Shown here: piece by piece, positions 23,726-49,391 of the stretch
Layout: every line of letters begins with the position of its first letter
Numbering within the stretch: position 1 is the first letter of the stretch
Assembly: GCF_902713615.1 (NCBI RefSeq)
Contig: NW_024055461.1
Span: forward strand, 1,287,877 to 1,351,876
DNA length: 64,000 nt
Direction of reading: 5' to 3'
DNA from: Scyliorhinus canicula
Lineage: Eukaryota
Notes under the pieces: model-generated
Seen by the model: the letters and a program-made list of their open reading frames with translations, nothing else
What the model was told of the DNA's origin: nothing
Databases searched by the model: none
Position numbers and translations under genes: made by a program

Positions 23726-25012
23726 ATGGAGAAACCGTGGAAATGTGCTGACTGTGGGAAGGGATTTAGAGCCCCATCTGTGCTGGAGATTCATTGCCGC
23801 AGTCACACTGGGCAGAGGCCATTCACCTGCTCTCAGTGTGGGAAGGAATTCACTCAGTTATCCAGTCTGTATGCACACCAGCGAGTTCACACTGGGGAAA
23901 AGCCATTCACCTGCTCCCAGTGTGGGAAGGAATTCACTCAGTTATCCAGTCTGCAGAGACACCAGCGAGTTCACACTGGGGAGAAGCCATTCACCTGCTC
24001 CCAGTGTGGGACGGGATTCAGTTCTTCATCCAACCTACGGAAACATCAGCGAGTTCACACGGGGGAGAGGCCATTCACCTGCTCCCTCTGTGAGAAGGGA
24101 TTCAGTGATTCATCCACCCTGCAGACACACCGGCGAATTCACACTGGGGAGAGGCCATTCATCTGCTCTCAATGTGGGAAGGGATTCATTAACTCGTCCA
24201 AACTTCGGAACCATCAGCGAGTTCACACTGGGGAGAGGCCGTTCACCTGCTCTCAGTGTGGGAAGGGATTCAATAACTCGTCCAACCTTCGGAACCATCA
24301 GCGAGTTCACACTGGGGAGAGGCCGTTCACCTGCTCTCAGTGTGGGAAGGGATTCAGTGATTTATCCACCATGAAGAGACATAAGCGAATTCACACTGGG
24401 GAGAGGCCATTCACCTGCTCTCAGTGTGGGAAAGGATTCAGTGATTTATCCACCCTGCGGAAACATCAGCGAATTCACACTGGGGAGAGGCCATTCATCT
24501 GCTCTCAGTGTGGGAATGGATTTACACATTTATCCAGTCTGCAGACACACCAGCGAATTCACACTGGGGAGAGGCCATTCACCTGCTCTCAGTGTGGGAA
24601 GAGATTCAATAACTCGTCCAACCTTCGGAACCATCAGCGAGTTCACACTGGGGAGAGGCCGTTCACCTGCTCTCAGTGTGGGAAGGGATTTGTTAGTTCA
24701 TCCACCATGAAGAGACATAAGCGAATTCACACTGGGGAGAGGCCATTCACCTGCTCTCAGTGTGGGAAAGGATTCAGTGATTTATCCACCCTGCGGAACC
24801 ATCAGCGAGTTCACACTGGGGAGAGGCCGTTCACCTGCTCTCAGTGTGGGAAGGGATTTGTTAGCTCATCCACCATGAAGAGACATAAGCGAATTCACAC
24901 TGGGGAGAGGCCATTCACCTGCTCTCAGTGTGGGAAGGGATTCAGTAATTCGTCCAACCTTCAGAAACACCGGCGAGTTCACACTGGAGAGAGGCAATTC
25001 ATCTGCTCTTAG
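23726..25012 (+). CDS. tandem C2H2 zinc-finger protein, 15 fingers, no effector domain; ends at a premature TAG in finger 16
   Basis: ATG of MEKPWKCADCGKGF, then 15 C-x2-C...H-x3-H units with TGE(R/K)PF linkers; CAG>TAG at FICS*. The leader exon acceptor lies near 23353. Confidence 0.85.
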   Translation: MEKPWKCADCGKGFRAPSVLEIHCRSHTGQRPFTCSQCGKEFTQLSSLYAHQRVHTGEKPFTCSQCGKEFTQLSSLQRHQRVHTGEKPFTCSQCGTGFSSSSNLRKHQRVHTGERPFTCSLCEKGFSDSSTLQTHRRIHTGERPFICSQCGKGFINSSKLRNHQRVHTGERPFTCSQCGKGFNNSSNLRNHQRVHTGERPFTCSQCGKGFSDLSTMKRHKRIHTGERPFTCSQCGKGFSDLSTLRKHQRIHTGERPFICSQCGNGFTHLSSLQTHQRIHTGERPFTCSQCGKRFNNSSNLRNHQRVHTGERPFTCSQCGKGFVSSSTMKRHKRIHTGERPFTCSQCGKGFSDLSTLRNHQRVHTGERPFTCSQCGKGFVSSSTMKRHKRIHTGERPFTCSQCGKGFSNSSNLQKHRRVHTGERQFICS

Positions 25013-25029
25013 TGTGGGAAGGGATTATA

Positions 25030-27395
25030 TAGAAACATGAAAAGGGAGAGCAGGAAGAGGCCATTTGGCCCTTTGCGCCTGATCTGCCATTCATTATGAT
25101 CATGGCTTATCATCCAACTCAATAGCTTAATCCCGCTTTCCCCTCCATATCCTTTGACCCCCTTCGCCTTCAGTGCGATATCTAACTGCTTCTTGCAAAC
25201 AAATAATGTATTGGCCTTAAAGTTTTCCTGTGGTAACAAATTCCACGGGCTCACCACTCTCTGGTTGAAGAAATTTCTCCTCATCTCTGTCTAAATGGTC
25301 TCCCCCGTATCCTCAGATTGCGACCTCTGGTTCTGTACACTCCCACCATCGGGAAAATCTTTCCTGCATCTACCTTGTTAAGTCCTGTTCGAATATTATA
25401 GGTTTCTATGAGATCCCCCTCATTCTTCTGAACTCCAGCGAATACAAACCTAACTGATTCAATCTCTCATACGTCAGTCCCACCATCCCAGGAATCAGTC
25501 TGGTAAACGCTCGCTGCACTCCCTCTAGAGCAAGAACATCCTTCCTCAGATAAGGAGACCAAAATTGCTCACAATATTCCAGGTATGGCCTCGCCACGGC
25601 CCTGTGTAATAATAGCAAGATATTCCTGCTCCTGTACTCGAATCCACTCGCAATGAAGGCTAGCATACCATTTGCCTTCTTTACCGCCTGCTGGAGCTGC
25701 ATGCTTACCTTCAGTGACTGGCGTACAAGGATACCCAGGTCTCATTGCACATTCCCCGCCTCTCCTAATCTATGGCCGTTCAGATAATAGTCTGCCTTCT
25801 CATTTTTAGTACCAATGTGGATAACCTCGCATTTCTCCAAATTATACTGCATCTGCCATTCATTTGCCCACTCACTCAACTTGTCCAAATCACTCTGAAG
25901 GATCTCTGCATCCTCCTCACAGCTCATCCTCCCAAGCAACTTGTGTGATCTGTAAATTTGGAGATATTGCATTTTGTTCCCTCATCTAAGTTGTTAATAT
26001 ATAAGTGGTGCAGCTGCCTCATGGTGCTGAGGATCATGGTTCAATCATGCCTGGGTCACTGTCTGTGTGCAGTCAAGTTCTCGATTTTGCGTGGGTCTCA
26101 CCCCCATAACCCCAAAGATGTGCAGTGGAGGGGAACTGGCCATGCTAAATTACCACTTATTTACAAAAATAGAATTGGGTACTTTAAATTTGAAAAGAAA
26201 AATCATTTATATATCTTGTGAATATCTGGGGCCCAGGCACTGATCCCAGCGGTACCCCACGAGCCACTGCCTGCCAATTTGAAAAAGATCCATTAATTCC
26301 TCCTCTTTGTTTCCTGTCTGCCAGTCAGTTTTTTTATCCATCTCAAGAGACGACCCCTAATCCCATGTGCTTTCATTTTACCCACTAATATCTTATGCAG
26401 GAATAAGTCGAAAGCTATCTGAAAGTCCAAATATACCACATCCACTGGCTCTCCCTCGTCAACTCGACCAGTTACACACTTGAAGAATTCCAGTAGATTT
26501 GTCAAGCATGATTTCCCCTTCATAAATCCATGCTGGCTCTGTCCGATCCTGCCACTGGTTTCGAAGTGCTTTGCTATAAAATCTTTGATAATGGATTCTA
26601 AAATTTGCCCCACTGCCGATGTCAGGCTTACTGGTCTATAATTTCCTGTTTTGTCTCGAGCTCCCTATTTAAATAGTGAGTTACATAAACCACCCTCCAA
26701 TGTGCAGGAATTGTTCCAGAGTCTATAGAATCCTGGAAGATGACCACCAATGCATCCATTATTTCTAGAGCCACTTCCTTAAGTACTTTGGGATACAGAT
26801 TATCAGGCCCTGGGGATTTATCAGCCTTCAATCCCATCAATTTCCCCAACACAATTTCTCGAATATTGATCTCCTTTAGTTCCTTCCTCTCACTAAATCC
26901 TGCGTTCCCCAACATTTCTAGCATCTAATTTGTGAAGCCAGAAGCAAAGTATGTATTTATTTGCTCACCCATTTCTTTGTCCCCTATTATACATTCCCCT
27001 GTTTCTGACTGAAAGGAACCTACATTTGTCTTCACCGATCTTTTTCTCTTCACATACCGACAGAAACTTATACAATCGGCCTAATTTCCTGTTTTGTGCC
27101 ATTCCCAACATCACCACTGCAGTTAGGGGGGTCTATATACACAACGCCCACTAATGTTTTTTGCCCCTTGGTGTTTCTCAGCTCTACCCATACAGATTCC
27201 ACATTGTTGGAGCTAATATCCTTCCTCACTATTGCATTAATTTCCTCTTTAACCAGCACTGCCACTCCATTGCCTTTTCCTTTTTGTCTGTCCTTCCTAA
27301 ATACTGAATATATTCAGTTCCCATCCCTGGTCATCCTGCAGCCATGTCTCCAGAATCCCGATTATCTCACACCCGTTTACATCTATTTACACAAT
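25030..27395 (-). mobile_element. CR1 LINE ORF2 (endonuclease-RT, internally deleted and frameshifted) inserted in the ZNF array; carries a SINE at about 26015-26200
   Basis: Minus-strand ORFs with VESVWVELRN, KADKSPGPD, SQHGFMKGKSCLTNLLEFF, YLDFQ.AFD, WQMQYNLEKC, RPYLEYC.QFWSPYL and RNFFNQRVV. Confidence 0.92.
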
Positions 27396-27428
27396 TCACT
27401 CGGTTATGCCGTCTGCAGTCACACCAGG

Positions 27429-28222
27429 GAGTTCACACTGGGGAGAGGCCGTTCACCTGCTCTCAGTGTGGGAAGGGATTCAATAACTCGTCCAACCTTC
27501 GGAACCATCAGCGAGTTCACACTGGGGAGAGGCCGTTCACCTGCTCTCAGTGTGGGAAGGGATTCAGTGATTTATCCACCATGAAGAGACATAAGCGAAT
27601 TCACACTGGGGAGAGGCCATTCACCTGCTCTCAGTGTGGGAAAGGATTCAGTGATTTATCCACCCTGCGGAAACATCAGCGAATTCACACTGGGGAGAGG
27701 CCATTCATCTGCTCTCAGTGTGGGAATGGATTTACACATTTATCCAGTCTGCAGACACACCAGCGAATTCACACTGGGGAGAGGCCATTCACCTGCTCTC
27801 AGTGTGGGAAGAGATTCAATAACTCGTCCAACCTTCGGAACCATCAGCGAGTTCACACTGGGGAGAGGCCGTTCACCTGCTCTCAGTGTGGGAAGGGATT
27901 TGTTAGTTCATCCACCATGAAGAGACATAAGCGAATTCACACTGGGGAGAGGCCATTCACCTGCTCTCAGTGTGGGAAAGGATTCAGTGATTTATCCACC
28001 CTGCGGAACCATCAGCGAGTTCACACTGGGGAGAGGCCGTTCACCTGCTCTCAGTGTGGGAAGGGATTTGTTAGCTCATCCACCATGAAGAGACATAAGC
28101 GAATTCACACTGGGGAGAGGCCATTCACCTGCTCTCAGTGTGGGAAGGGATTCAGTAATTCGTCCAACCTTCAGAAACACCGGCGAGTTCACACTGGAGA
28201 GAGGCAATTCATCTGCTCTTAG
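27429..28222 (+). pseudogene. headless duplicate of ZNF fingers 7-15
   Basis: Identical translation to the 3' part of the 23726-25012 ORF, with the same TAG. Confidence 0.85.
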
Positions 28223-28239
28223 TGTGGGAAGGGATTATA

Positions 28240-30605
28240 TAGAAACATGAAAAGGGAGAGCAGGAAGAGGCCATTTGGCCCTTTGCGCCTGATCTGCCAT
28301 TCATTATGATCATGGCTTATCATCCAACTCAATAGCTTAATCCCGCTTTCCCCTCCATATCCTTTGACCCCCTTCGCCTTCAGTGCGATATCTAACTGCT
28401 TCTTGCAAACAAATAATGTATTGGCCTTAAAGTTTTCCTGTGGTAACAAATTCCACGGGCTCACCACTCTCTGGTTGAAGAAATTTCTCCTCATCTCTGT
28501 CTAAATGGTCTCCCCCGTATCCTCAGATTGCGACCTCTGGTTCTGTACACTCCCACCATCGGGAAAATCTTTCCTGCATCTACCTTGTTAAGTCCTGTTC
28601 GAATATTATAGGTTTCTATGAGATCCCCCTCATTCTTCTGAACTCCAGCGAATACAAACCTAACTGATTCAATCTCTCATACGTCAGTCCCACCATCCCA
28701 GGAATCAGTCTGGTAAACGCTCGCTGCACTCCCTCTAGAGCAAGAACATCCTTCCTCAGATAAGGAGACCAAAATTGCTCACAATATTCCAGGTATGGCC
28801 TCGCCACGGCCCTGTGTAATAATAGCAAGATATTCCTGCTCCTGTACTCGAATCCACTCGCAATGAAGGCTAGCATACCATTTGCCTTCTTTACCGCCTG
28901 CTGGAGCTGCATGCTTACCTTCAGTGACTGGCGTACAAGGATACCCAGGTCTCATTGCACATTCCCCGCCTCTCCTAATCTATGGCCGTTCAGATAATAG
29001 TCTGCCTTCTCATTTTTAGTACCAATGTGGATAACCTCGCATTTCTCCAAATTATACTGCATCTGCCATTCATTTGCCCACTCACTCAACTTGTCCAAAT
29101 CACTCTGAAGGATCTCTGCATCCTCCTCACAGCTCATCCTCCCAAGCAACTTGTGTGATCTGTAAATTTGGAGATATTGCATTTTGTTCCCTCATCTAAG
29201 TTGTTAATATATAAGTGGTGCAGCTGCCTCATGGTGCTGAGGATCATGGTTCAATCATGCCTGGGTCACTGTCTGTGTGCAGTCAAGTTCTCGATTTTGC
29301 GTGGGTCTCACCCCCATAACCCCAAAGATGTGCAGTGGAGGGGAACTGGCCATGCTAAATTACCACTTATTTACAAAAATAGAATTGGGTACTTTAAATT
29401 TGAAAAGAAAAATCATTTATATATCTTGTGAATATCTGGGGCCCAGGCACTGATCCCAGCGGTACCCCACGAGCCACTGCCTGCCAATTTGAAAAAGATC
29501 CATTAATTCCTCCTCTTTGTTTCCTGTCTGCCAGTCAGTTTTTTTATCCATCTCAAGAGACGACCCCTAATCCCATGTGCTTTCATTTTACCCACTAATA
29601 TCTTATGCAGGAATAAGTCGAAAGCTATCTGAAAGTCCAAATATACCACATCCACTGGCTCTCCCTCGTCAACTCGACCAGTTACACACTTGAAGAATTC
29701 CAGTAGATTTGTCAAGCATGATTTCCCCTTCATAAATCCATGCTGGCTCTGTCCGATCCTGCCACTGGTTTCGAAGTGCTTTGCTATAAAATCTTTGATA
29801 ATGGATTCTAAAATTTGCCCCACTGCCGATGTCAGGCTTACTGGTCTATAATTTCCTGTTTTGTCTCGAGCTCCCTATTTAAATAGTGAGTTACATAAAC
29901 CACCCTCCAATGTGCAGGAATTGTTCCAGAGTCTATAGAATCCTGGAAGATGACCACCAATGCATCCATTATTTCTAGAGCCACTTCCTTAAGTACTTTG
30001 GGATACAGATTATCAGGCCCTGGGGATTTATCAGCCTTCAATCCCATCAATTTCCCCAACACAATTTCTCGAATATTGATCTCCTTAGTTCCTTCCTCTC
30101 ACTAAATCCTGCGTTCCCCAACATTTCTAGCATCTAATTTGTGAAGCCAGAAGCAAAGTATGTATTTATTTGCTCACCCATTTCTTTGTCCCCTATTATA
30201 CATTCCCCTGTTTCTGACTGAAAGGAACCTACATTTGTCTTCACCGATCTTTTTCTCTTCACATACCGACAGAAACTTATACAATCGGCCTAATTTCCTG
30301 TTTTGTGCCATTCCCAACATCACCACTGCAGTTAGGGGGGTCTATATACACAACGCCCACTAATGTTTTTTGCCCCTTGGTGTTTCTCAGCTCTACCCAT
30401 ACAGATTCCACATTGTTGGAGCTAATATCCTTCCTCACTATTGCATTAATTTCCTCTTTAACCAGCACTGCCACTCCATTGCCTTTTCCTTTTTGTCTGT
30501 CCTTCCTAAATACTGAATATATTCAGTTCCCATCCCTGGTCATCCTGCAGCCATGTCTCCAGAATCCCGATTATCTCACACCCGTTTACATCTATTTACA
30601 CAATT
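28240..30605 (-). mobile_element. second copy of the CR1 insertion (part of the tandem duplication)
   Basis: Same minus-strand ORFs at offset +3210. Confidence 0.9.
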
Positions 30606-31293: not shown

Positions 31294-33004
31294 TTCAGGT
31301 TAGAAGATATTTCATTACCATTTCTGTTTTGAAATCCCCCAAATCATGCCACATTGCCATAAAGATGGGCTATGGTGGTTACGTGGTTCTTTTGTTTAAT
31401 TTGTCTTGGTGCTTCTCACAGAAGAAAACTATCAGGGTATGAGGGGCATGTTGTCTGAGGTGCACTGGGAAACTACATTACATGGTATGGTGGGTGACAG
31501 GCAATCACTAATATTTATGGAATTATTACAGATTTACATGGGGATCGGTTCGCTCAGTTGACTGGATGGCTGGTTTGTGCTGAGTGACACGAACAGCACA
31601 GGTTAAATTCCCATAGCGGCTGAGGTTAGCCATGGTCTGTCAGTATTTGTGCTCCACATGACCCTCCACCCACCCCTCTATATCCCCCCCCTCTATACCC
31701 TCCTTCCCCCCCCCCCCCCCCCCCCCCCCACCATCAGCATCTCCCTCTATTCCTTTCTCTCTCATGTATGTATCTAGCTTTACGTTCAATGTATTAATGC
31801 TGTTCACCTCAACCACTGGCTGTGGGAGTGAGTTGCACATTCTCACCACTCGCTGGTAAAGAGGTTTCTGCTGAAATTCCTATTGGATTATTGAATTCCT
31901 TCATAATCTGAAAGACTTCCTCCAGGTCACCCATCAGTCTTCTCCTTTCCAGAAAAAAGCAGCCCCAGACTTTCCTGGGTGTTAAATGCTCTCAGTTCTG
32001 TATATTATGAATCTTTGTTGCACCTTATCCAGTGCCTCTATTTCCTTTATCGAAATGGAGATCACCAATGTTGACACTGCTCCCAGTGTAGTCTAACCCC
32101 GGTTCTAAACAAGCTGAACATTTCCTCCGTGCTTTTCAATTCTATCTCTCTAGAATGGAACCCTATATATAATTGCCCCACACTTTGGGAAAGATGTGAA
32201 GTTCTCAGAGACGGTGTCGAGAACATTTACGAGAATGGTACCAGAGATGAGGGACACCAGTTAGTTGGAGTGACTGGAGCAACTAAATTTCACTCCTGAG
32301 ATCACAGCATCTGGAGGGTGGGGAATGGGGCCATTCAGCCCTTTGGGAACGTGTCGGCTCCCTGTGGAGGAAGCCAGTCTGTCTATTGCCCCGTTCTATC
32401 CCCAAATCCCTGTGAGTTTATTTCTCTCAATGCCTGTCCAATTTCCTATTGAAATCATTCCATCATCTCTGCATCTCCCACCCTCATAGGCGATAGGTTC
32501 CAGGTTGTTACCACTCCCTTTACATGTACACAAGGCTGTTCGAGCACAGAGGAGTCTATTTGGCCCATTTTTCCTATGCCAGCACTTTGTATAGCGACCC
32601 ATTTAATCCCAGAGTCCGGCTATTTTGTTTTCTTTTTCAGAATGCATCAAATTACATTTTGGAAATTGCATTCCAATGAGATTCCAGCACCATTTATCGA
32701 CAGTGCATTCCAAATCACAAAAACTCGCTGTGTTTTACAACAAATAATTGTGCATATGGTGTGTGTGAATTTTCACAGAGTATTCAAAATGGTGTCAATG
32801 ACGTGGGTATTACACAAAATTAAGACTCAATCTTTATCAATGATTCTGGTGAGGACACCGAGTGTAATATATGCGGACAATTGGAATAAATGTACATTTC
32901 TATCAAACCTCTCGACCACTGAACCTCCTAAAGTGTTTTAAAGCCAATGGAGTACTTTTGAATTGAAACATATTCACTGTTGTAATGTAGGAAGCTGTAA
33001 GTAC

Positions 33005-33970
33005 TGTTCTGGAAAATACAGAATGTGTCATTTGAAACATAGAGGTCTGCCAATATCTGGTCTGGGAGAGTGCAGGGAAAGATCCCACAAGAGGTTGGTG
33101 GCAGCTGAAAAGAGCAGAAACTGTGGCCAGCTCTTCTGTCAAAAATGCAGTCAATTTCAGTCTGTCAGAATTGTTATTACAACCTGCAGCAGGAGAAAGG
33201 GAAAAAGAAAAAAACAGAGTTTGCATACATTTCTTTGTGCTGTTGAAATATTGTAATGGACTGCCCCTTTAAGCCCCGTAGTCCTTTCCCCATCGGAGGT
33301 CCCGATCTCCCGCCAAAAATCACTAAGCGCGGGCTTCCCTCGCTCCTCCCCCCACGTGCGAGGCAGCAGACATCGGGAGAAAAGCAGAACGCGAGGGAGC
33401 AGCAGCTGGAGAGGGCAGAACGGAGCTCAGAGGAAGGAGGACAGAAAACAGAGAACCAGCATCAGGAGAGAGAGAGAGAGAGAGAGAGAGAACTCGGTTA
33501 TGGGAAAGGCAAAGCAAACAGCTGAGTGTAAACGGTAATAGATTTAAAGAAGGCTAGGATTTAAAGGTAAAATGTTAAGTTTGGGTCTGAAGGTCCCCAA
33601 CCAACCAGACAACATCCAAAATCACTAATCTGTTTACCTTTCTGTATAAGAAAGTGTTTACAACTTATTAAAAAAAGTATGATAATAATAAAATAATTTA
33701 ACCTGAAAAAGTGGTTATTAGCTTACTTCACTTCCTTAATAACGCAGGACCCAGGACATCAATGCTATTAAAGGGTAAGTAGGTAAAATTCTTCGGTGAA
33801 GGTATGGGTTATACCGGGGGATAACTTGAAAGGAGAGTTTGACCTGAATAGCACCCACAGAAGCCTGTATCGGAGTCAGGGAGTGAGAATCCCTGTTCAC
33901 CATTTTAGAGTATTGGCCCTTTTTTGGTTTAGGGGGAATTCTAAGACAGAGTGGTGGATTTACAAAAACA
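33005..33970 (+). repeat. 5' LTR (966 bp)
   Basis: TGTTCTGGAAAATAC...GGATTTACAAAAACA. It matches 41122-42086 except about 7 substitutions plus GA-run and A-run length changes (counted by eye). Confidence 0.95.
33116..33201 (+). other. WDFY3: captured WDFY3-like FYVE-coding fragment in the LTR (also at 41233-41318)
   Basis: Reads RNCGQLFCQKCSQFQS and, after a frameshifting deletion at GTCTG, CQNCYYNLQQEKG. The WDFY3 C-terminus as I recall it is RNCGQLFCQKCSRFQSEIKRLKISSPVRVCQNCYYNLQHERG. Confidence 0.8.
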
Positions 33971-33988
33971 TGGCGAGCCAGCCAGGAG
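33971..33988 (+). promoter_or_regulatory. primer-binding site for tRNA-Arg(ACG)
   Basis: TGGCGAGCCAGCCAGGAG is the reverse complement of the vertebrate tRNA-Arg(ACG) 3' end CUCCUGGCUGGCUCG-CCA; it abuts the LTR. Confidence 0.9.
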
Positions 33989-34118
33989 GCCTAGAATATT
34001 AGAAGTTTCTAGGTAAATAGGGGCTAGAATATTAGAAGTTTCTAGTTCCCAAGAAACGGTTGGAATATTAGAAGTTTCTAACCGGCACAAAGGCTAGAAT
34101 ATTAGAAGTTTCTAGCCT
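33989..34118 (+). other. four tandem stem-loops with invariant loop TATTAGAAGT (candidate packaging or dimerisation signal)
   Basis: Stems GCCTAGAA/TTCTAGGT, GGGGCTAGAA/TTCTAGTTCC, CGGTTGGAA/TTCTAACCG and AGGCTAGAA/TTCTAGCCT. Confidence 0.8.
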
Positions 34119-34540
34119 GTGTGTGAGTCAAACTTTACCTGCCGAGTTTAGTTTGGAAAGTCATGTGTGATTGGCTTTTGTAAGGATATTCTGTGGATCG
34201 AGGGGACAGAAGCTCAGGTTGGGTGTGAAAATTAGTAGACTAGAAGATACTGGCCCTGAGAAAAGTCTGCAAGACATTTTGGTGACAGCACTAAAATTTT
34301 GCATCCATTACTGGTAAAAGGGGCTAAAGAATAAATCATCCTCAGGGTAAGGCAGATTGTGCGGACATTTTCTGGAAAATAGGAACGCTTATCTTCAGAA
34401 ACCAATAATCAATCGACCCTTAACTAAAGCAGGAAGATAGTGCCTTGGTCAGCCTTGGATAGGGCCCAGAAAGGGTACTTATCCTTAATTTCAGAGTGCA
34501 CCTGAAAGGGACAACCAGGAACAGAAAAAAAATCCGAAAA

Positions 34541-37500
34541 ATGGCAATTAGGGTAATTCTCATGCCCTGGGATACGGTCAAGAGAAATGTAGCAGTGAAA
34601 CAGGAATGGAAGAAATTAAAAGAGCAAAAGAAATCCTGGAAAAAAGATATGTATCCAGACGGAGATATCTCCTTCTTTGTTAGAGTGCCAAAAGCCCTGC
34701 AATATACAGATCCAGTAGGGATCCTTAAAGCACTTTGTAAGTTTGCATTTGAAAAGCAAACTGAATCACTAATCTTGTTCGGACACAGACAGAAGCATGC
34801 AGCTGCTCAAGTGGGCAAAGTGTGCTCCAAACTGATTAAAATCATTGACGAAGAAAACATGAAAGAAATAATACAGATCCCTAGTGAACACAAAAGTAAC
34901 TCTGAAGTGGCAAACAAATATATAAAACAACTGCAGAAAAATGAAACATTAGAAATGGAAAATGACGAGGAATCAGTCCTAGAATCAGATAGCCGAGAGA
35001 ATTCGGACCCCTTTGAAAATTTCCCAAAGGGATACAATTTTCAATACCCAGATCCAAGTCCGTTTCAGGAAGAAAATTGGCCACGGCAATCTGCCACATA
35101 TAAAAAAGGAGCTTTTATCGATTATTTCTTTGAAACACAAGAAAGTGAAGAGGAACAAAGCCTAGTTGGGATTATGGCGCCTCCTGCGCTGGGACAGGAA
35201 GAATCATCATCCTCATCAGAGAATGAGGAAATAGTAAAACCAAGGAGAAGAATAGGGAATAGAAAAAATTCTAAACCATTAGAAATAGGGGATTATAGTG
35301 ATTACTGGAAACAACAACAACCTTCCACTTATCGACCAATAAATAAGGATTTACCGTATTATATGTATAATCCAGAAGCAAAAATGGTACACCATAGAGA
35401 TCAGGAAGGATGGGAAAGAGAGGTTACATCTAGGGGACTTAAAATAGGAGAAATATTAGGAGGAAGTCAACAAATTGATTCTACGAAATTACTGGAATTA
35501 CCAAACGTTACCCCCAAAGCTAAAATTTGGCAAATGAGCAAAGGGTATGACAGTTTCGGAAGAGCCATGAGTAGGGTAAGGAACAGCACAGAAACACAAG
35601 GCCAGATAACAGCAGCATTAAGACCACAAGAAAGGATACAGAATCGTCCAAGACCCCGAATAACTGCTCCTACTCCTATGGATAGGGCAAGTTATGCTCC
35701 ACGAGATAGCCAAGTACCAATTGCAATGTTTGAAGAATATATAGAACCGGTGGAAGATTTTGTACAACATGGTACCCCCTATTTTGAGGAAGAACCAGTA
35801 CAACGACAGATACATTTCTCAGAATATAGGACACCTTTAAGAACACCATGCCCCAGAAGTGAGAAAGTAGTTCAGTTATTTACACCAGGTCCAGAGGAAG
35901 GACAGGGAGGCATGGTACCGTATAAAATAGTAGCAGCAGTAATGAAGACAGCAGGCCCAAAGAAACATGGGGAGAGTAGAATTGAGTATTCACAGAGGTT
36001 AAAACAGTTAGCGAAGAAAATGGGGGCATCAGGAGAATCCACCAAATTGATTGATTCAGTGGGAGAAATAGTTACAGGCGAAGTCTCAGATTTAATAAAT
36101 GAGTTAGATTTGGGAAATGAGAGAGCTAACTTAATGAAAGAGATGACAGAGGCAGCATATGCAGGGGAACACCTCACAACATATGTCGACCGAATATATG
36201 AGGTTAATAAGGAAGAGGGGGCCGATGTAGTCAGATTCCTGAGGGAATTAGGACCCAAGATTCCAGGAGGAAATAGCCTCTCAACAATACTGTTAACGAC
36301 CTCTAGAAGAGAAATAGGAAGAGAACTGGTGAAATTTGATTTGGCAGGCAAAGCATTTAAGGATAAACACACAAAAGGGGAACAAAAAAGAGTAGCAGCT
36401 GCCCAAAATAATGTTTCAACACAAAATGCTCAGATTAGACCACCAAACCGACAGATACCTGACAAATCGGAACACAATCTAGCCCAACCAGCAATGCCAC
36501 AACATGGGTATAATCTGCGGTCACAAGGGCCACCTCCACCACAAAATCTAGATTACTTACCAAGGGAACAATTCCTAGCCCTCAGTCGGGAGGAAAGAGA
36601 CAGATTCATTGAGGATAGGAGAAGAAGAGCAGCTGGTCAGGGGAAAGATTTAATAAAAATAGATACTAGAAAAATAAGGATATTAAAACCAATTGATAAC
36701 ATGGAGGAAATAAGGAAACAGAAAGAGAAAAGTATTTTAAATGAAGCTTGGAAGAAGATGGAAGAAGTATTAATGGGAGCAAACCTAGCGATAGGTAAGA
36801 ATGACACAGGTTTAATTAGCAAGCGGTTCCAACACACAATTCACGGGGGACAACACAGACCTCAAAAACAGTATCCTTTGACTAGAGGAGCTAAGAGCGA
36901 GCTGGAGATAATAATCAAGGAATTGGAGCAGCAGGGGATTATTCAAGGGGTCACATATGCCTCAACAAATAGTCCACTTCAAGTAGTAAGAAAACCAGAT
37001 GGTACATTTAGGATGGTAACAAATTACAAAGCTTTAAATAAAGTCACAAAGAAGGACAAGAGATATTTAATAAATCCACAAGCTACCTTAGAGCAAGTCG
37101 CGGGAAAAACTTACTTAACTAGTATAGATTTGGCGAATGGATTCTGGAGTGTTCCATTAGACCCAGACAGCAGGGAGAAAACAGCATTCACCTTCGGAAC
37201 TAAGCATTATGTATATTGTAGACTGCCACAGGGATATGTTAATTCTCCGAATCACTTTCAGGCAATAATCAGGGAACTGATTAAAGATGATTTGGCTTTA
37301 GTATATATCGATGATATATTAATTGGAGATGACGATCAGGACAAACATGTGGAAAGAGTGGCCAGGATAATTAAGACACTTAGTGAAGCAGGCTTTAAAA
37401 TAGGGCTAAAGAAATGTCAAATTGGGAGAAGCGAAGTCAACTATTTGGGTTATTCAGTATCGAAGGAAGGTAGAGAGGCCAGTATTGAAATGAGGAAGAA

Positions 37501-39448
37501 GGTAGCTGAAATTACTGCGCCTGTTTCGAAAAAAGGGGTTCAAAAAATAATGGGAATATTGGGATATCTAAGGCCAGTAGTGAAAGACTTTAGTCTTTAT
37601 GCTAAAGCCATTTATCAAACATTGCAAGGGGATTTTATTTGGACCAGCGAGGCCCAGAGAGGGTTAGATCAGTTAAAGATAGCAATTGCGATATCGGGAC
37701 CATTAGTTGGGAGACAAGAAGAGGATGATTTAAGCATTAAATTAGACATATATAAAAATGGATATGGTATGGTGCTTGCTAATCTTAGCAATCAGACACC
37801 TATCAAACATCTGACAGGAAACTGGTCGAGAGCTGAACAAAAGTTTTCAAACATCGAGAAATGTCTAGCAGCTATAACAAAGAGAATAGCAGAGATAGAA
37901 AACTTGTCGGGTGGTAAGAAAATTTATGTCACAGCTGAGTTTTTGGAATTAAAGGAGCTAACCAGGAGACAGATTTGCCAGCAAGGCGCGAATACAGCTC
38001 GATGGGAAAGATGGGAAACCATTCTTCTAAACCCTGACTTAATGTTTATTCATAACATTAAAAAGGGACAGAAACTTGATGAACCAGTTAGTAAAACGGA
38101 GTTGGTGAATGCTTGGGTATTATATACTGATGGTAATAAAGTCAAGAAGGACGAAGAACAAGCCAGATGGGCATTCATTTTAAAAAATTCAGGAAAAATA
38201 GTAGTGGAGGAACAGGGAATAATCATTGGATCAGCTCAGACAGCTGAGGTAGAGGGAGTATTGCAAGGGTTAAAGGAGTGTCAGCAGCGAAAGCTGCAGG
38301 AAGTTACCGTTGTAACCGACAGCTTTTTCGTGCAGCAAGGATTGGAGAAAGATTTGGAGTTTTGGAAACTAAACGGTTGGACGAACGGTAGAAATAAACT
38401 ACTGGAACAGAAAGAACAGTGGGAAGAGATAGATAAAATTTTAGCCGATATGGAGATCCAGACAATTCATCAAAAAGCACACACAAAAGGAACTGGGGAA
38501 CTGTGTAAGGGGAATCAGGAAGTGGATGAATTAGCCAGACTTAGGACAATAATCTTGGGGACTCTTGGGAACACAGCAGCCGACCTTCAAATGATAATTA
38601 AGCAAATACATGAAGCCACAGGACATGGGGGTCATGTTGTAGTCGCAAGGGAGTTGAAAAAGTTGGGAATTAAAATAGCCTATTGGAGACAACATTTAAC
38701 TGCAGTAAGGAGAAAATGTGAGAGATGTATGGCCTGTGGAGGACAGAGAGGGAATAAAACATATGGGAGCATAAAAACTGAGAAACCAATGCAGGAATGG
38801 TCATTAGATTATGCAGGACCACTTTTTCCCAGAAGCAGCAACGGTAATTTGTATTTTTTAGTCAAAGCTGATAGCTGCACGGGAGAAATTGACCTTAGAG
38901 CAACCAGCAAAGCAAATGGAGCCACGACCAAAAGGGTATTGGCAGAAATGATGACCTCCAGAGGTAGACCAGAATCGATCCGAATGGACAACGCGCCGCA
39001 CTTTAGAAACAATACTGTTATTAACTTTTGTGCTGACAGAGGAATAACAATCAATTGGGCCGTGAAATATGCACCTGAGAGTAATGGAATGGCTGAGAGG
39101 TCTGTAAGAAAAGTAAAGGATTGGATCATAAAGAATCAGAATAATAAAGGCTGGGATAAAGACATTGAAAGAATAGTATTTGATCTTAATAGTAATCTTG
39201 GAACCTCTGTCTCCCAGGGACAAGGGGACCCAAGTGAATCTGGGAATTATCAAGTAGGAGACGAAGTTTGGGTGAAGCTACCAACTAAGACTGTGGGGAA
39301 AATCATTCGTGAGACTGTAAAATGTAAAGACAAGATTGTTCAGATTCTGGGTACACATACAATTGAATTAGAGAAGCATGGTGTCTGGAGCAAAAGGAAT
39401 TGTGTCACAATTGAAACACACGACCCAGTGAGCATCAGAGGAGTTTGA
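34541..39448 (+). CDS. Gag-Pol polyprotein, 1635 aa from the first ATG: Gag, RT, tether, RNase H, integrase; no recognisable protease
   Basis: GYNLR (36506), RPQKQYPL (36857), DLANGFW, RLPQGYVNSP, YIDD (37304), WSRAEQKFSNIEK tether, YTDG (38123)...AQTAE...TDS...KGNQEVD RNase H, H-x4-H...CERC, and D...D-35-E integrase (WSLDYAGP, RMDN, NGMAER). Confidence 0.93.
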   Translation: MAIRVILMPWDTVKRNVAVKQEWKKLKEQKKSWKKDMYPDGDISFFVRVPKALQYTDPVGILKALCKFAFEKQTESLILFGHRQKHAAAQVGKVCSKLIKIIDEENMKEIIQIPSEHKSNSEVANKYIKQLQKNETLEMENDEESVLESDSRENSDPFENFPKGYNFQYPDPSPFQEENWPRQSATYKKGAFIDYFFETQESEEEQSLVGIMAPPALGQEESSSSSENEEIVKPRRRIGNRKNSKPLEIGDYSDYWKQQQPSTYRPINKDLPYYMYNPEAKMVHHRDQEGWEREVTSRGLKIGEILGGSQQIDSTKLLELPNVTPKAKIWQMSKGYDSFGRAMSRVRNSTETQGQITAALRPQERIQNRPRPRITAPTPMDRASYAPRDSQVPIAMFEEYIEPVEDFVQHGTPYFEEEPVQRQIHFSEYRTPLRTPCPRSEKVVQLFTPGPEEGQGGMVPYKIVAAVMKTAGPKKHGESRIEYSQRLKQLAKKMGASGESTKLIDSVGEIVTGEVSDLINELDLGNERANLMKEMTEAAYAGEHLTTYVDRIYEVNKEEGADVVRFLRELGPKIPGGNSLSTILLTTSRREIGRELVKFDLAGKAFKDKHTKGEQKRVAAAQNNVSTQNAQIRPPNRQIPDKSEHNLAQPAMPQHGYNLRSQGPPPPQNLDYLPREQFLALSREERDRFIEDRRRRAAGQGKDLIKIDTRKIRILKPIDNMEEIRKQKEKSILNEAWKKMEEVLMGANLAIGKNDTGLISKRFQHTIHGGQHRPQKQYPLTRGAKSELEIIIKELEQQGIIQGVTYASTNSPLQVVRKPDGTFRMVTNYKALNKVTKKDKRYLINPQATLEQVAGKTYLTSIDLANGFWSVPLDPDSREKTAFTFGTKHYVYCRLPQGYVNSPNHFQAIIRELIKDDLALVYIDDILIGDDDQDKHVERVARIIKTLSEAGFKIGLKKCQIGRSEVNYLGYSVSKEGREASIEMRKKVAEITAPVSKKGVQKIMGILGYLRPVVKDFSLYAKAIYQTLQGDFIWTSEAQRGLDQLKIAIAISGPLVGRQEEDDLSIKLDIYKNGYGMVLANLSNQTPIKHLTGNWSRAEQKFSNIEKCLAAITKRIAEIENLSGGKKIYVTAEFLELKELTRRQICQQGANTARWERWETILLNPDLMFIHNIKKGQKLDEPVSKTELVNAWVLYTDGNKVKKDEEQARWAFILKNSGKIVVEEQGIIIGSAQTAEVEGVLQGLKECQQRKLQEVTVVTDSFFVQQGLEKDLEFWKLNGWTNGRNKLLEQKEQWEEIDKILADMEIQTIHQKAHTKGTGELCKGNQEVDELARLRTIILGTLGNTAADLQMIIKQIHEATGHGGHVVVARELKKLGIKIAYWRQHLTAVRRKCERCMACGGQRGNKTYGSIKTEKPMQEWSLDYAGPLFPRSSNGNLYFLVKADSCTGEIDLRATSKANGATTKRVLAEMMTSRGRPESIRMDNAPHFRNNTVINFCADRGITINWAVKYAPESNGMAERSVRKVKDWIIKNQNNKGWDKDIERIVFDLNSNLGTSVSQGQGDPSESGNYQVGDEVWVKLPTKTVGKIIRETVKCKDKIVQILGTHTIELEKHGVWSKRNCVTIETHDPVSIRGV

Positions 39449-39677: not shown

Positions 39678-39806
39678 ATGGAAAAAATAAATAACGAACC
39701 AGTTCACAAGAAGGAAGAGAACTACACTCCAGAGAGGAATCTTTTAGACAGGATTGGGGGGGAAACTAATGATGCAATTGGCTACATATTTGAGGGAATT
39801 AAATGA
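39678..39806 (+). CDS. putative small accessory ORF or exon B (42 aa) behind a strong splice acceptor
   Basis: CCCTCTCCACCCTTGATCTGTTCATTTGATTTTCAG|ATG, then MEKINNEPVHKKE... Confidence 0.3.
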   Translation: MEKINNEPVHKKEENYTPERNLLDRIGGETNDAIGYIFEGIK

Positions 39807-40642
39807 CAGAACCCCGAGGAAAACTTTACGGGGTAGAAACAAATCAAAATATCAAATTATAACTGGACAGTGAAACCTCCGGTCAGACATCTCTAACTGG
39901 ACATTAGCTGATGGGTGATCTGCGGTCTCCATGGAGTATGTACTACGTGGTGGAATTATTAAGGGTCTCGGCAGATAGCAGCGACTGACGAGGAACCCCA
40001 ATATGATAAATGACAATAGTTTAAGAATTTTAGTAGCTTGATACTACGGCGGGAAAATTGTTACCAATGCAGCAAAACAATATTGCATTGAAGAGCTGTA
40101 ATCGTTATTATAAAAAATAAAAATTAAAAAAAAATATTAAATTTTCATGTAAATTGATAGGGACTGTTATATATATATGATAAGGGGGGTATGTGTGTCG
40201 TTAAAGAACTTGATCCGCATTTCTAAACTCTGTGAATGTTTTAATAGAGGGGTAGTTTAGTGTGTTTTCTTGATTTAACTATATAGTACATTACAAATAA
40301 TATTGATGTTGTTTATATGCCATATTTAGTATGTAATAATTATTGTTCCCAAAGCCAAGAAGGAATGTTTCGATATTGATATTAAATTTTGTTAACAGTT
40401 GAAAATATGTAAAGTTGTAACACACAGTCTATTTGTGTGGTTAGGTAATGAATAATGTGTTAAGATAAGATTTTTTTTTTACTATGTATTTAACAATAGG
40501 GAGAATTTGTTTGAAAAAAAAGACGGTTCAATGTGGTTTTGCAAATGCTGTAATGAAAAATATACACTTTGTCAGAAAGATATTCTCTCATGTAAACCAG
40601 AGGTTGGCAGACTTACATGATTCACGACAATGTTAGACATTA

Positions 40643-41152
40643 ATGGGGAAGTTAGGAATACAAGCAGGATCAATTGAACATTTTAAATTAATGAAACAAA
40701 GGGATCAGTGGGTGGTACATGATATCACAATTACCCCATTCCAATCAGAAATGGAAAACTATTTGGACGACGGAAAAATGGGGCACGTAACAACCAGTGA
40801 TGGACAAAAGATCTGTTTGGTTACTGATGAACTGAGTTGTGTGCTGGTTCTAAGGGACATGAGGAAGCTTATACGGTGCTGCTATCCCAAGGAAGTAAAA
40901 TGCTTTGGAGGTAGTGGAACACACGGAAAGCTAATGTGTTACCTTCCTGAGCGGCTATGGCTATGGTTCACGGTAATTGGACTGGAACGGAAAACAAGAC
41001 TCTTATTGACACTGGTCTGTGATATGCATACAAATGACAAAGATCAGGGATGTATGTTAGTACAATTGGATGGGGGGACAATAAACCAAATTATAGTAAT
41101 GTTTCAAATGTCAAGACGGGGTGTTCTGGAAAATACAGAATGTGTCATTTGA
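40643..41152 (+). CDS. putative accessory ORF C (169 aa, Cys-containing, unknown function)
   Basis: Open frame running across the PPT into U3; no homology recognised and no Env hallmarks. Confidence 0.4.
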   Translation: MGKLGIQAGSIEHFKLMKQRDQWVVHDITITPFQSEMENYLDDGKMGHVTTSDGQKICLVTDELSCVLVLRDMRKLIRCCYPKEVKCFGGSGTHGKLMCYLPERLWLWFTVIGLERKTRLLLTLVCDMHTNDKDQGCMLVQLDGGTINQIIVMFQMSRRGVLENTECVI

Positions 41153-41373
41153 AACATAGAGGTCTGCCAATATCTGGTCTGGGAGAGTGCAGGGAAAGAT
41201 CCCACAAGAGGTTGGTGGCAGCTGAAAAGAGCAGAAACTGTGGCCAGCTCTTCTGTCAAAAATGCAGTCAATTTCAGTCTGTCAGAATTGTTATTACAAC
41301 CTGCAGCAGGAGAAAGGGAAAAAGAAAAAAACAGAGTTTGCATACATTTCTTTGTGCTGTTGAAATATTGTAA
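41050..41373 (+). CDS. putative U3-overlapping ORF D (107 aa) with the WDFY3-derived peptide in frame
   Basis: Starts before the PPT and reads ...AEKSRNCGQLFCQKCSQFQSVR...; position analogous to bel2/nef-type genes. Confidence 0.35.
   Translation: MYVSTIGWGDNKPNYSNVSNVKTGCSGKYRMCHLKHRGLPISGLGECRERSHKRLVAAEKSRNCGQLFCQKCSQFQSVRIVITTCSRRKGKRKKQSLHTFLCAVEIL
41113..41121 (+). promoter_or_regulatory. polypurine tract
   Basis: AAGACGGGG immediately before the TG of the 3' LTR. Confidence 0.7.
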
Positions 41374-42086
41374 TGGACTGCCCCTTTAAGCCCCGTAGTC
41401 CTTTCCCCATCGGAGGTCCCGATCTCCCGCCAAAAATCACTAAGCGCGGGCTTCCCTCGCTCCTCCCCCCACGTGCGAGGCAGCAGACATCGGGAGAAAA
41501 GCAGAACGCGAGGGAGCAGCAGCTGGAGAGGTCAGAACGGAGCTCAGAGGAAGGAGGACAGAAAACAGAGAACCAGCATCAGGAGAGAAGAGGAGGAGAG
41601 AGAGAGAACTCGGTTATGGGAAAGGCAAAGCAAACAGCTGAGTGTAAACGGTAATAGATTTAAAGAAGGCTAGGATTTAAAGGTAAAATGTTAAGTTTGG
41701 GTCTGAAGGTCCCCAACCAACCAGACAACATCCAAAATCACTAATCTGTTTACCTTTCTGTAGAGAAAGTGTTTACAACTTATAAAAAAAAAGTATGATA
41801 ATAATAAAATAATTTAACCTGAAAAAGTGGTTATTAGCTTACTTCACTTCCTTAATAACGCAGGACCCAGGACATCAATGCTATTAAGGGGTAAGTAGGT
41901 AAAATTCTTCGGTGAAGGTATGGGTTATACCGGGGGATAACTTGAAAGGAGAGTTTGACCTGAATAGCACCCACAGAAGCCTGTATGGGAGTCAGGGAGT
42001 GAGAATCCCTGTTCACCATTTTAGAATATTGGCCCTTTTTTGGTATAGGGGGAATTCTAAGACAGAGTGGTGGATTTACAAAAACA
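41122..42086 (+). repeat. 3' LTR (965 bp)
   Basis: TGTTCTGG...TACAAAAACA followed by the GTAC TSD. Confidence 0.95.
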
Positions 42087-45000
42087 GTACGTATGTGTAA
42101 TTACATTTAGTTTTGAAATTGTTATTTTCATAGTGTATTCCCTGTCATTAGTAACATGGTCAAGGAAGCCCTTTTATACCTCGAACATGCAGCTTCCTGC
42201 AGCCATTTCACCTTCTGTACCTTTTCTGTATTAACCACATTGATTTCACAGCAAAAAGCAATAATTAAATTTATGATTATTCAGTAGTGAACATAGATTA
42301 TCATACATGAATTGGTGTGTGAGGTAGTTATCTTGTAAAGACTAGTTCTTTATTTTAAAAAGTAACACTTCCAACCAAAATGTTTCCAGAAACTGCAGAG
42401 CTATCAGAATTTGTTTGAAAAAATAAATTACTTTATAATTTTGAGAAGTTACAAGACATCATATTCTGCCAAGACTATGTGGGCTGGGCAGAGGTGTAAT
42501 GGTATTGTTACTGGGCTAGTAATCCAGAGACCCAGGTTAATGCTCTAGGGATCTGGGATCGAATCTGCCTATGACAGTTTTTGAAATTGAATAAAAGTCT
42601 CAAATTCAAAGTCTAATGTTGACATTGTTGATCGTTGTAAAAACCCGTCTGGTTCACTAATGTCGTTTATGAAATCTGCTCTCCTTTTGTGGCCTGTCCT
42701 GCACGTGACTCCAGATCCACAGCAATGTTGTGGTTGATTTGTAAGTCTCCTTAAATAGCCTCACAAGACATGCAGTTCAAGGGCATTGGAATGAGCAGTA
42801 AATGCTGGTCCAGCCAGTGACGCCCACCTCCCATTAATGAATACTTTTTAAGAAGGTTTATTGTTCAATCTGAAGACTAGTAAGAAACTCTCTTTGATTG
42901 GATTTGATTAATTGTCACGTGTATCAAGGTACAGTGAAAAATATTGTTCTACATTTCCAGACAGATTGCTCCATACATGAAAAAACATAGGACATACAAT
43001 AAACATACAATGTAAATACATAGACACAGACAGCGGGTAAAGCGTATGGATTATAGTACTACTCAGAAAAGAACCAGTGTATCTTGTATTAACCAAATGT
43101 ATTAATTAGTTTGTAACATGATTAAATAAGTAGTGATCCTTAATTGAGTGACAATTAATGAAACTTTTTTTTTATTCATTGGGCATTGGCGTTGCAGGCT
43201 GTGCCAGCATTTATCACCCATTCTTATCGATTCCAGGCTTGGGTCACTGTCTGTGCGGATTCTGCACTTTCTCCCCATGTATGCGTCCCCACGTAGACAT
43301 GGGGAGAAGGTGTAATCTCCACACCGACAGCCACCCAAGGTTAAAATTGAACCTGAGTCCCTGGCACTGTGAGACAACAGTGGTAACCACTGTGCCACGC
43401 TAACAGTTGACTCTGGTGGGATATGAGCCCACAACCTTTGAATCCCTTACTTGCGATTAAGTAGAAGTCCAACACACTATCCATTGTGCTACAGAGTCAT
43501 ACATATCCTTTAATCCCTTTAGCCCCAAGAGCTGTATCAAACCCCTTCTTCAAATTGTACACTGTATTGGCCTCCACGACTTTCTGTGGTAATGAATTCC
43601 ACAGGCTCGTCACTCTCTCTAGGTGAAAAAATTTCTCCTCACCTCAGTCTTAAAAGTTTTACTCCATGTCCTCAAGCTATGACCCCCTAGTTCTGGACTT
43701 CCCACCATTGGGAACATTCTTTATGAATCTACTCTGTCCACTCCTGTTAGAATTTTATACGTTTCTTTGAGATCTTCTCATTAAAAAAGAGATGGAGAAG
43801 CAGAATTAGGCCATTCAGCCCATCGCGTTTGCTCTGCCATTCGATCATGGCTGATAAGTTTCTCGTCCCCATTATCCTGCCTTCTCCCCATAACACCTGA
43901 GCCTCTTATTCAAGAACCAATATATCTCTGTCTTAAAAAGACTGACGGGCATGGCCTGGTGCCATGTGGCCATCAATTAATTTCCTTTCCCCCAAGAGAA
44001 ATCAAGGACTTGACACTGTGTGTTTGAGACAAAGCTGATTTATTTCACAAACAACAAGATATTAAACACTCGCCCAGCTCAGTTACAGGGAATCGAAATA
44101 AACCCCAATTGTCAGATTGAAGATGGTTCAGTTCTGGGTGTGATTATCAGTGGCAGTAACAGCAGAATCAACACTTTTCAGATGAACAGAGGGTAAATAT
44201 AAATTAGTTTGACAGTTCAGGAATCATCAGTGGCATCTTATGATGTGGAGAAATTAGCTCAACAATTCTATGAACTAAAATTTAGTCTGGCCTGGTGTCA
44301 CCAAGCTGAAATCCAGTCTTTCTCTGACACATTATTCTTAATGACATAGCTGACAGGTTAAGAGTGAAAAAGTCAACTGTTTAGCAGTACGGGGAAGAGG
44401 CAGGTTTGTAGATGTTCTACAGTGTTACAAACGGGCTCGTTGGATCTTATTCTGTCCCATCTTACATTCAGCTGACAGTAAAATGACTAAAATACTGCAA
44501 CATACAGGCATTTGGGGACAATGGTGAGATTGCTGCTCAGATTAGTTAAAGTCTCCATATTGTAAAATAGATCTAGAAGGACTGGAGAAGATGCAGGAAA
44601 AGATATTTGAATTATGCCTGAACTGGCAGGTTACACCCAGTAAGAAAGATTGGACAGGGCATAACATTTTCTCTTGAAAAGGGAATGAAGGATGACCTGA
44701 TCCTGTAAGACTATGAACAGGTTTGATATGATAGACAAGTGGAAGATGTTTCCACTGAATAAGAATAAATATGAGTTAGTGATTGATTAATCTAATGTGC
44801 AGTTCAGAGGGAGATCACTCACACACTTCACATGTGCAAAGGAATTTCCTCAGTTTTCCCACTGGTTAACACTCCAACTTTAAAAGCCCAGACAATTTGA
44901 TCCAATTGCAGCACATTGTTATGGACGAGGGGCAGTTTAACTGTTCTGTCCAGGAAGACAAAAATCACTGTTCACCTGAACCTGCTCAGACCCCAACCCG

Positions 45001-48420: not shown

Positions 48421-49391
48421 GGTGTTCGAAGGGGAGGCTTCAAAGTCCGGAAACTCAAACCAAGCATCACATCAGGATCTGACCGACCACAATTTATCCT
48501 GAATATCATAGGATTTTGAACATGTAAGGAAAAAGCATCGTTCACAGTGGGGAGAAACCGTACTTGATTTGTGTGTGTGGACGAGGATTCACTCCATCAT
48601 CAGGCCTCACAAGCCACAAATGCAGTCACACTGAGGAGAAACCGTGGAAATGACTGGACTGTGGGAAAGGATTCACTTCCCCATCCAAGCTGGAAACTCA
48701 TCCCCGCAGTCACACTGGAGAGAGACCATTCACCTGCTCAGAGTATGGGGAGGGATTCACTCAGTCATCCTCTCTGTCCACACACCAGCGAGTTCGCACG
48801 GATGAGAGACCGTTTCAATGTCCAGACTGCGGGAAGTGCTATAAACGTTCTGGGGAACTGGTTCGCCATCAGCGTGTTCACACTGACGAGAGACCGTTCA
48901 GGTGCTCTCACTGTGGGACTGGGTTCAGACAATCATCTGACCTCACTGTACATCAGCGAAGTCACACTGGGGAGAGGCCATTCACCTGCTCGAAGTGTGG
49001 GAAAGGATTCACTCGATCATCTAACCTGCAGAGGCACCAACAAATTCATACTGGGGAGAGGCCATTCGCCTCCTCAGGGTGTGGGAAGGGATTCATTTAG
49101 TCACCTGACCTGCTGAGTCACCAGCGAGTTCACACTGATGAGAGACCTTTTCAATGTCCAGACTGCGGGAAGTGCTATAAAAGTTCTGGGGAACTGATGC
49201 ACCATCAGCGTGTTCACACTGACGAGAGACCGTTCAGGTGCTCTCACTGCGGGACTGGGTTCAGGCAATCCTCTGACCTCACTGTACATCAGCGAGTTCA
49301 TACTGGGGAGAGGTCATTCACCTGCTCCAAGTGTGGGAAGGGATTCACTACTTCATCCCATCTCCTGGGACACCAAAAAGGCCACAAGTAA
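48421..49391 (+). pseudogene. frameshifted C2H2-ZNF pseudogene
   Basis: Acceptor TTTTACAG at 48420; fragmented fingers such as [48 protein letters not shown]. Confidence 0.85.

Follow-up and report, generated by a model that had tools for sequence, protein, structure and literature searches.

This study revealed that the leader of a foamy-like endogenous retrovirus (ERV) of the catshark carries, directly after the primer binding site (PBS), a tandem array of predicted RNA hairpins with a common loop, and that this array is a regular part of the family to which the element belongs. The array is probably, although this is held with only modest confidence, a multimerised packaging or dimerisation signal of the element's RNA genome. 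This reading is favoured by the position after the PBS, the covariation of the stems, the retention of the array, the better fold of the sense RNA and the transcription in sense; retention is also expected from plain inheritance.

In the window, i.e. the whole 64-kb stretch of DNA that was analysed, a 16-nt core occurs in four exact copies on the forward strand, starting at 33994, 34027, 34063 and 34097. The cores of the array span 33994-34112, and the first stem opens at 33989, directly after the 18-nt PBS (33971-33988). Allowing up to two mismatches, six matches to the core are found in the window against 0.08 expected, the remaining two (25391 and 28601) being located outside the element. 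The four units are the following:

33989..34014, forward strand: hairpin unit 1, with a predicted 8-bp stem, a 10-nt loop at 33997-34006 and a pseudo-palindrome at 33999-34012
34020..34049, forward strand: hairpin unit 2, with a predicted 10-bp stem including G-U pairs and a pseudo-palindrome at 34032-34045
34057..34084, forward strand: hairpin unit 3, with a predicted 9-bp stem, in which pair 6 is U-A and pair 4 is G-U, and a pseudo-palindrome at 34068-34081
34091..34118, forward strand: hairpin unit 4, with a predicted 9-bp stem and a pseudo-palindrome at 34102-34115

The preliminary description of this DNA had reported four copies of one core, each closed by a different but complementary stem, and this proved exact, the stems being as described. 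Beyond the core, units 1 to 4 have 5, 7, 6 and 6 contiguous pairs when G-U pairs are allowed, and 4, 3, 0 and 6 when only Watson-Crick pairs are counted. When the letters outside the cores were shuffled 200,000 times, this extension of the stems was never equalled, and a left arm forms 2-6 pairs with the right arm of another unit, compared to 5-7 with its own. Folding predictions agree with the proposed hairpins: the RNA of 33960-34140 reaches -60.5 kcal/mol (z -5.45; 0 of 200 shuffles), and the predicted pairing probability of the four local stems is 0.90-0.99 in contexts of up to ~1 kb. The spacers, which had been called unrelated, are so within the window copy, but not family-wide, where whole units have been duplicated together with their spacers. 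A search of Rfam over 33000-34600 (E up to 5) gave three weak matches, none of which falls on the array.

The element that hosts the array comprises the following features:

33001..33004, no strand: left target-site duplication of 4 nt, with its second copy at 42087-42090
33005..33970, forward strand: 5' LTR (TG...CA), 98.7% identical to the 3' LTR, with AATAAA at 33687
33772..33780, forward strand: splice-donor-like sequence motif in the 5' LTR
33971..33988, forward strand: PBS, of tRNA-Arg(ACG) type in the window copy
34119..34540, forward strand: remaining leader, of which the young expressed subfamily lacks ~200 nt, yet has 6-12 units
34541..39448, forward strand: single Gag-RT-tether-RNase H-integrase frame, without Cys-His knuckle and without protease
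39768..40004, forward strand: env stub, matching the 3' end of an env-like gene in older relatives
40637..41152, forward strand: Cys-rich open frame of 171 codons without Pfam match, a possible accessory gene
41113..41123, forward strand: polypurine tract (PPT), with the GGGTG junction that characterises foamy-like elements
41122..42086, forward strand: 3' LTR, 98.7% identical to the 5' LTR

The Gag of the window copy has no CCHC motif (Cys-His box). Moreover, the window copy misses a 360-bp in-frame stretch near 36640, which corresponds to the Gly-Arg box and the protease in most kin; among 17 kin translated at this junction, the stretch is present in 13 and absent in four. The window element reads as a defective, non-autonomous and env-less copy, which would need helper proteins. 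The 360-bp loss is common to a subfamily that also includes L040, L041, L042, L043, L051 and L053, and which was presumably mobilised in trans, given that it spread without Gly-Arg box and protease. Gag and pol are in one frame, with an in-frame stop between them in some copies (compare L044 and L038 with L046 and L047). The insertion has C2H2 zinc-finger gene arrays with an 84-bp period on both sides (23600-28300 and 48500-49350).

By sequence, the host family is the published catshark foamy-like ERV, ERV-Spuma.0-Sca (PMC10699275), whose published sequence of 9,220 nt has the same LTR end, a variant of the PBS and the array, with four exact core matches; the agreement of the leaders was judged by eye. 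The family was already known and its array is printed in the supplement of PMC10699275, but no mention of the array was found there: the main text gives no matches for hairpin, PBS or leader, and the annotation rows examined hold no leader feature. The window copy differs from ERV-Spuma.0-Sca in its Arg-type PBS, in the lack of the protease/Gly-Arg stretch, and in having an env stub where PMC10699275 annotates env. The named protein relatives are from catshark, with 90-91% identity. The best solved-structure match of Pol is a Peptidase A9/RT/RNase H structure, which we take to be that of a foamy virus (7.8e-82, versus 1.5e-42 for Ty3 and 2.9e-28 for an MLV-type RT), and the integrase matches PFV integrase (1.1e-13). 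In an RT tree in which named foamy and loki sequences were not included, the element falls among teleost relatives, and other class III-like and gypsy sequences are placed elsewhere.

Fish foamy-like ERVs are described as having a GGGTG junction and a 4-nt target duplication, with Cys-His boxes absent as a rule (PMC5210030). Both GGGTG at the PPT:LTR junction and the 4-nt duplication are present here, Gag has no Cys-His box, and its C-terminus is Gly/Arg-rich in 13 of the 17 kin. The array had been deemed notable on the grounds that this Gag is devoid of a Cys-His knuckle; this argument falls away, since a knuckle-less Gag is the family norm in the account of PMC5210030. With regard to foamy viruses proper (Spumaretrovirinae), these express pol from its own spliced mRNA and have env, whereas gag and pol share one frame here and the window copy has only an env stub. 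Such a stub is all that is found in 18 of 20 young 9.9-kb loci (the 18 being those matching that part), and env-like frames exist in older kin; the env-like pieces of kin matched no Pfam family. Compared to lokiretroviruses, described with a PF00523-like Env, a tether near Ty3 RNase H and an RT that falls outside the sampled retroviruses (PMC7947760), the RT-tether region found here is far nearer to foamy than to Ty3. Elsewhere, none of 80 candidates in viral contigs was a related locus, and metagenome contigs yielded 29, nearly all of them 24-33% identical.

Genome-wide, 1,723 adjacent pairs of exact cores were found (0 in the control), and the family amounts to hundreds of copies. There are 321 matches to the LTR end with a Lys-type PBS, and among the first 100 of these, read by eye, 96 are followed by the array and one by a single homologous hairpin; the other three have neither. 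Selection by pol only gave 36 copies, and for 30 of them the retrieved stretch included a 5' LTR end; all 30 carry the array, with 3-11 units. Five of the other six have neither units nor PBS region in the stretch, and one is interrupted. Altogether, 159 distinct arrays with 908 units were collected (a few loci being perhaps counted twice or incomplete), each of 2-19 units and mostly of 4-5.

Whole units, and blocks of three, have been duplicated together with their spacers, and the arrays of L128 and L228, with 18-19 units, are largely head-to-tail copies of a 33-nt block. Loop identity and copy number within one array are explained by the duplication of units, through slippage or recombination. 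The earlier claim of RNA selection "rather than simple slippage" therefore went too far, as duplication and loss of units (2-19) alone explain the identity of loops inside an array. Among 27 loci, unit number does not follow LTR age in any clean way, 4-8 units being present where the LTRs are >99% identical. L287 and L288, which have 100% identical LTRs (849 and 860 bp), seven units and the shortened leader, represent very recent insertions. Derivatives without protease, without 200 nt of leader, or without most or all of gag-pol have spread with the array kept; one array-less two-LTR deletion was found, as a single copy (n=1). A group of older env-bearing copies (L231-L245) without most of gag-pol forms the complement of the young env-less family, and both keep the leader hairpins.

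The claim that selection acts on RNA structure was supported by two-sided changes at five of nine pairs, by a sense fold exceeding the antisense fold, by a core conserved better than the leader, and by retention in 30 of 30 copies. Over 738 units, pairing is kept in 96-99% for pairs 1-6, in 89% for pair 7, in 97% for pair 8 and in 44% for pair 9. Covariation across copies was assessed on 30 unit types chosen by hand: 23 of the 38 shared types and seven others, namely unit 4 of the window, one further shared-lineage type, one further unit-3-like type, and two types each from the older and the distant lineage. Two-sided changes occupy 20 cells, compared to 8.2 after shuffling, a number reached in 0 of 500 shuffles; as the unit types are related, and relatedness can beat shuffles, these counts constitute support and not probabilities. 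The two-sided pair types are C-G/U-A at pair 6, A-U/G-U/C-G at pair 4 and G-C/A-U at pair 3. An alternative fold, with a bulge and a UUAG tetraloop, was rejected: its two-sided changes come from one or two unit types, and two of its pairs are unpaired in 27-29 of the 30 types.

The predicted fold energy is -46.6 kcal/mol for the sense RNA and -33.0 kcal/mol for the antisense RNA. This large advantage of the sense RNA is due to G-U pairs, the energies as DNA being equal (-21.3 vs -20.7). Of the five units of an older lineage, three have only 0-1 differences over 22 letters, and the downstream leader is 70-71% identical, so that the cores are better conserved than the leader next to them. The other two units have changed loops and kept stems. 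The loop had been presented as invariant, which is exact for the four units of the window copy but does not extend to older lineages, given their units with altered loops. The distant lineage, whose Gag N-terminus is ~42% identical and whose leader is not alignable, has one homologous hairpin in the same place.

Several observations weigh against selection on the structure. An uncompensated G-G mismatch at pair 7 is found in 57 of the 738 units, in common subfamilies, and chimeric units bring G-G at pair 7 into 19 of 159 arrays and G-A at pair 6 into 19 of 159. The expectation that other copies neither lose the array nor break its stems thus held for the array, which all 30 pol-selected copies with a 5' LTR end carry, but not for the outer pairs, which break without compensation in common subfamilies. 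A mirror test inside the family, comparing changes that keep pairing through G-U with those that break it, gave 13 vs 9 private and 13 vs 6 shared changes, on few events. In long arrays of identical units (12 loci were folded, of which L001, L020 and L203 each include one spurious unit), many units have a lowered predicted probability of the local hairpin, of 0.0-0.4. It is likely that the inner 6-bp stem and the loop make up the working unit.

With regard to transcription, single-cell RNA reads (~1% of run X23) cover 33833-34143 at a depth of 137.5 in one direction and 3.4 in the other; these reads represent the family and not necessarily the window copy, and their depth is distorted because the LTRs of the subfamilies are only ~80-85% alike. 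This is consistent with the array being transcribed in sense, provided that the library obeys the usual strand rule. The dominant junction, represented by 572 sense-strand reads with 72 starts, joins the array to the shortened leader of the young subfamily. The splice-donor-like motif, located ~200 nt upstream of the PBS, is present in young lineages only, and none of the 15 joints listed, out of 37, is a GT..AG joint.

A further property of the units is a 14-base palindrome that comprises loop positions 3-10 together with the 3' arm, G-U being counted as a pair; 25 of the 30 unit types have 7 of its 7 pairs. Among loop shuffles, 0.65% achieve this full pairing in the same register and ~1.7% in any register. 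The palindrome is perfect in one older lineage and broken in 5 of the 30 unit types, the distant lineage among them, and changes in its register are one-sided only, without any two-sided change. For the window units, the dimer is predicted to be more stable than two hairpins (unit 1: -26.4 vs -19.8 kcal/mol); the gain comes mainly from arm swapping, which is open to any hairpin. The palindrome is possibly a dimerisation switch, a lead that is new here, and it would give a reason for the conservation of the loop without any protein.

The PBS of most kin is of tRNA-Lys(CTT) type or a variant thereof; in fish foamy-like ERVs, a tRNA-Lys primer is usual and exceptions are known. An exact tRNA-Arg(ACG) PBS is found in three of 30 close copies, namely the window copy, L010 and L013. 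ARAGORN called a tRNA-Arg(ACG) at two of eight loci with the complement of the window PBS, and a tRNA-Lys(CTT) at two of four loci with the complement of the usual family PBS. The primer switch to tRNA-Arg left the array unchanged. In Lys-type copies, unit 1 shares the last two bases of the PBS. The commonest family PBS resembles the last of 2-3 tandem PBS-like repeats in older lineages. In the distant lineage (L177:1406-1432 and L172:1619-1645), the 3' arm of the single hairpin repeats eight letters of the T-loop region of tRNA-Lys, a match that is lost in the main family and that hints at an origin of the hairpin from primer read-through.

If the array is a packaging and dimerisation signal, one ancestral hairpin would have multiplied into an array of units, each predicted to fold as an RNA hairpin with a 6-10 bp stem and a 10-nt loop. 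By arm swap or through the 14-base pseudo-palindrome, the hairpins of two RNAs are predicted to be able to rearrange into an intermolecular duplex of greater stability. The repeated loops may serve as several equal landing sites for a Gag with a Gly-Arg box, which would be supplied in trans for the defective window copy, and the differing outer stems could prevent mispairing between neighbouring units. The position just 3' of the PBS, which had been invoked in favour of such signals, does fit them and matches the CasI region of foamy viruses (PMC6669543, PMC3185757). A more far-reaching version holds that the array amplifies itself as a modular packaging signal, recognised sequence-specifically by a knuckle-less Gly-Arg Gag, that the palindrome in each unit opens on dimerisation, and that unit number acts as a dial for complete and defective copies competing for limiting Gag within one genome. 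This version is speculative and unlikely; if true, it would provide a natural allelic series exposing how foamy-type Gag picks RNA.

Among the alternatives, the one that fares best, though unlikely, is that a single PBS-adjacent hairpin is functional and that the extra units, which would have arisen by template slippage and recombination while the RNA was reverse-transcribed, are tolerated by-products and bring no advantage by their number. The range of 2-19 units with duplication of whole blocks would be explained in this way, as would the spread of chimeric units with mismatched outer arms, the propagation of the distant lineage with one homologous hairpin, and the absence of a clean trend of unit number with LTR age. 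However, internal and terminal units have two-sided changes of their own (pair 6 U-A, pair 3 A-U), which indicates that units beyond the first are under structural constraint. Furthermore, the 30 copies selected by pol that have a 5' LTR end all carry at least three units, although slippage should remove units as easily as it adds them.

It is distinctly improbable that an RNA-binding protein of the host, or an accessory protein of the element, binds the hairpins, which would then act in export, stability or translation of the unspliced RNA instead of packaging. The structural evidence would be the same, the loop contains UAG, which is also found in a second hairpin of the distant lineage, and a 171-codon unannotated frame precedes the 3' LTR. 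UAG is the core recognised by Musashi and hnRNP A1. Yet 15 of the 19 shared loop variants retain UAG/UGG, a share close to that expected of scattered changes. A UAG core was rejected as a candidate derived from the loop variants, in which it is not enriched (15 of 19 shared, 25 of 35 distinct). Export of foamy-virus RNA does proceed via cellular proteins, with RNA elements given as uncharacterised (PMC3185757), but a site near the PBS is the usual place for packaging signals, and the array is kept in derivatives without most or all of gag-pol.

It is very unlikely that the repeats function as DNA, in the form of an enhancer located immediately inside the LTR and made of tandem transcription-factor sites (e.g. 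heat-shock-element-like dyads). Two nGAAn/nTTCn pentamers, both perfect and in phase, are present in each unit, and a perfect dyad of 14 bp that matches the Pelham consensus is found in one of the older lineages. A heat-shock element consists of three or more contiguous alternating nGAAn pentamers, whereas every run of three pentamers here has at least 2 mismatches of 9; with this best fit, and only two perfect pentamers per unit, the heat-shock element was rejected. Foamy viruses do possess a DNA-binding activator, Bel-1/Tas (PMC3185757), but the spacings of 33, 34, 36 and 38 keep no helical phase, an older shared unit loses the C of the pentamer with a matching change in the 5' arm, and neither the two-sided arm changes nor the strand asymmetry due to G-U pairs is expected of a DNA site. 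The least probable alternative is that the hairpins govern placement of the primer tRNA or the start of reverse transcription, as a primer-activation-type switch or a Pol landing site: unit 1 adjoins the PBS, whose last two bases it shares in Lys-type copies, the distant-lineage 3' arm repeats eight letters of the tRNA-Lys T-loop region, and the Pol-encapsidation sequence of foamy viruses lies within CasI (PMC6669543), but only the first unit can touch the primer, and the array is the same after the tRNA-Arg switch, with the T-loop match lost in the main family.

For foamy-type Gag, with Gly-Arg boxes and no zinc knuckle, no defined RNA site is given in the consulted portions of two reviews (PMC3185757, PMC13736810). 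The present spuma-related family offers a short, repeated candidate for a Gag site, with natural variants of stem, loop and copy number (1 to 19), for which 30-nt RNAs suffice in binding and dimer tests. It also presents a cis element that probably grew from one hairpin to an array in the course of the diversification of a retrovirus family and its loss of env. MLV and coronaviruses are known to have repeated hairpins in their leaders; searches of the open literature returned no description of an expandable array of this kind in a foamy-like ERV, most subscription papers and Repbase being outside the search. The reconstructed AciFLERV leader, as given in the supplement of PMC5512871 and read by eye, has no such array.

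Among the closest known systems is CasI of foamy viruses, which comprises packaging and Pol-encapsidation sequences and the dimer sites SI-SIII (PMC6669543, PMC3185757, PMC13736810). It has the same position, belongs to a related virus with a knuckle-less, Gly-Arg-rich Gag, and includes a palindrome implicated in dimerisation (PMC13736810). In contrast to the variable number of tandem hairpins with identical loops described here, CasI is reported with one 10-nt palindrome (SII). In coronaviruses, the UUYCGU hexaloops of SL5 comprise 2-8 structured repeats with a conserved loop and are proposed packaging signals (PMC8206606); given that both virus and loop are unrelated, this is an analogy only. 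The core encapsidation signal of MLV (the palindromic SL-A/SL-B and the GACG hairpin pair SL-C/SL-D) likewise has repeated hairpins with the same loop 3' of the PBS (PMC13736810), but with two GACG tetraloops, a fixed number and a zinc-knuckle Gag, whereas 2-19 units, a 10-nt loop and no knuckle are found here. Finally, the hairpin-to-duplex switch predicted for the catshark array resembles those of MLV SL-A/SL-B and of the foamy SII palindrome (PMC13736810).
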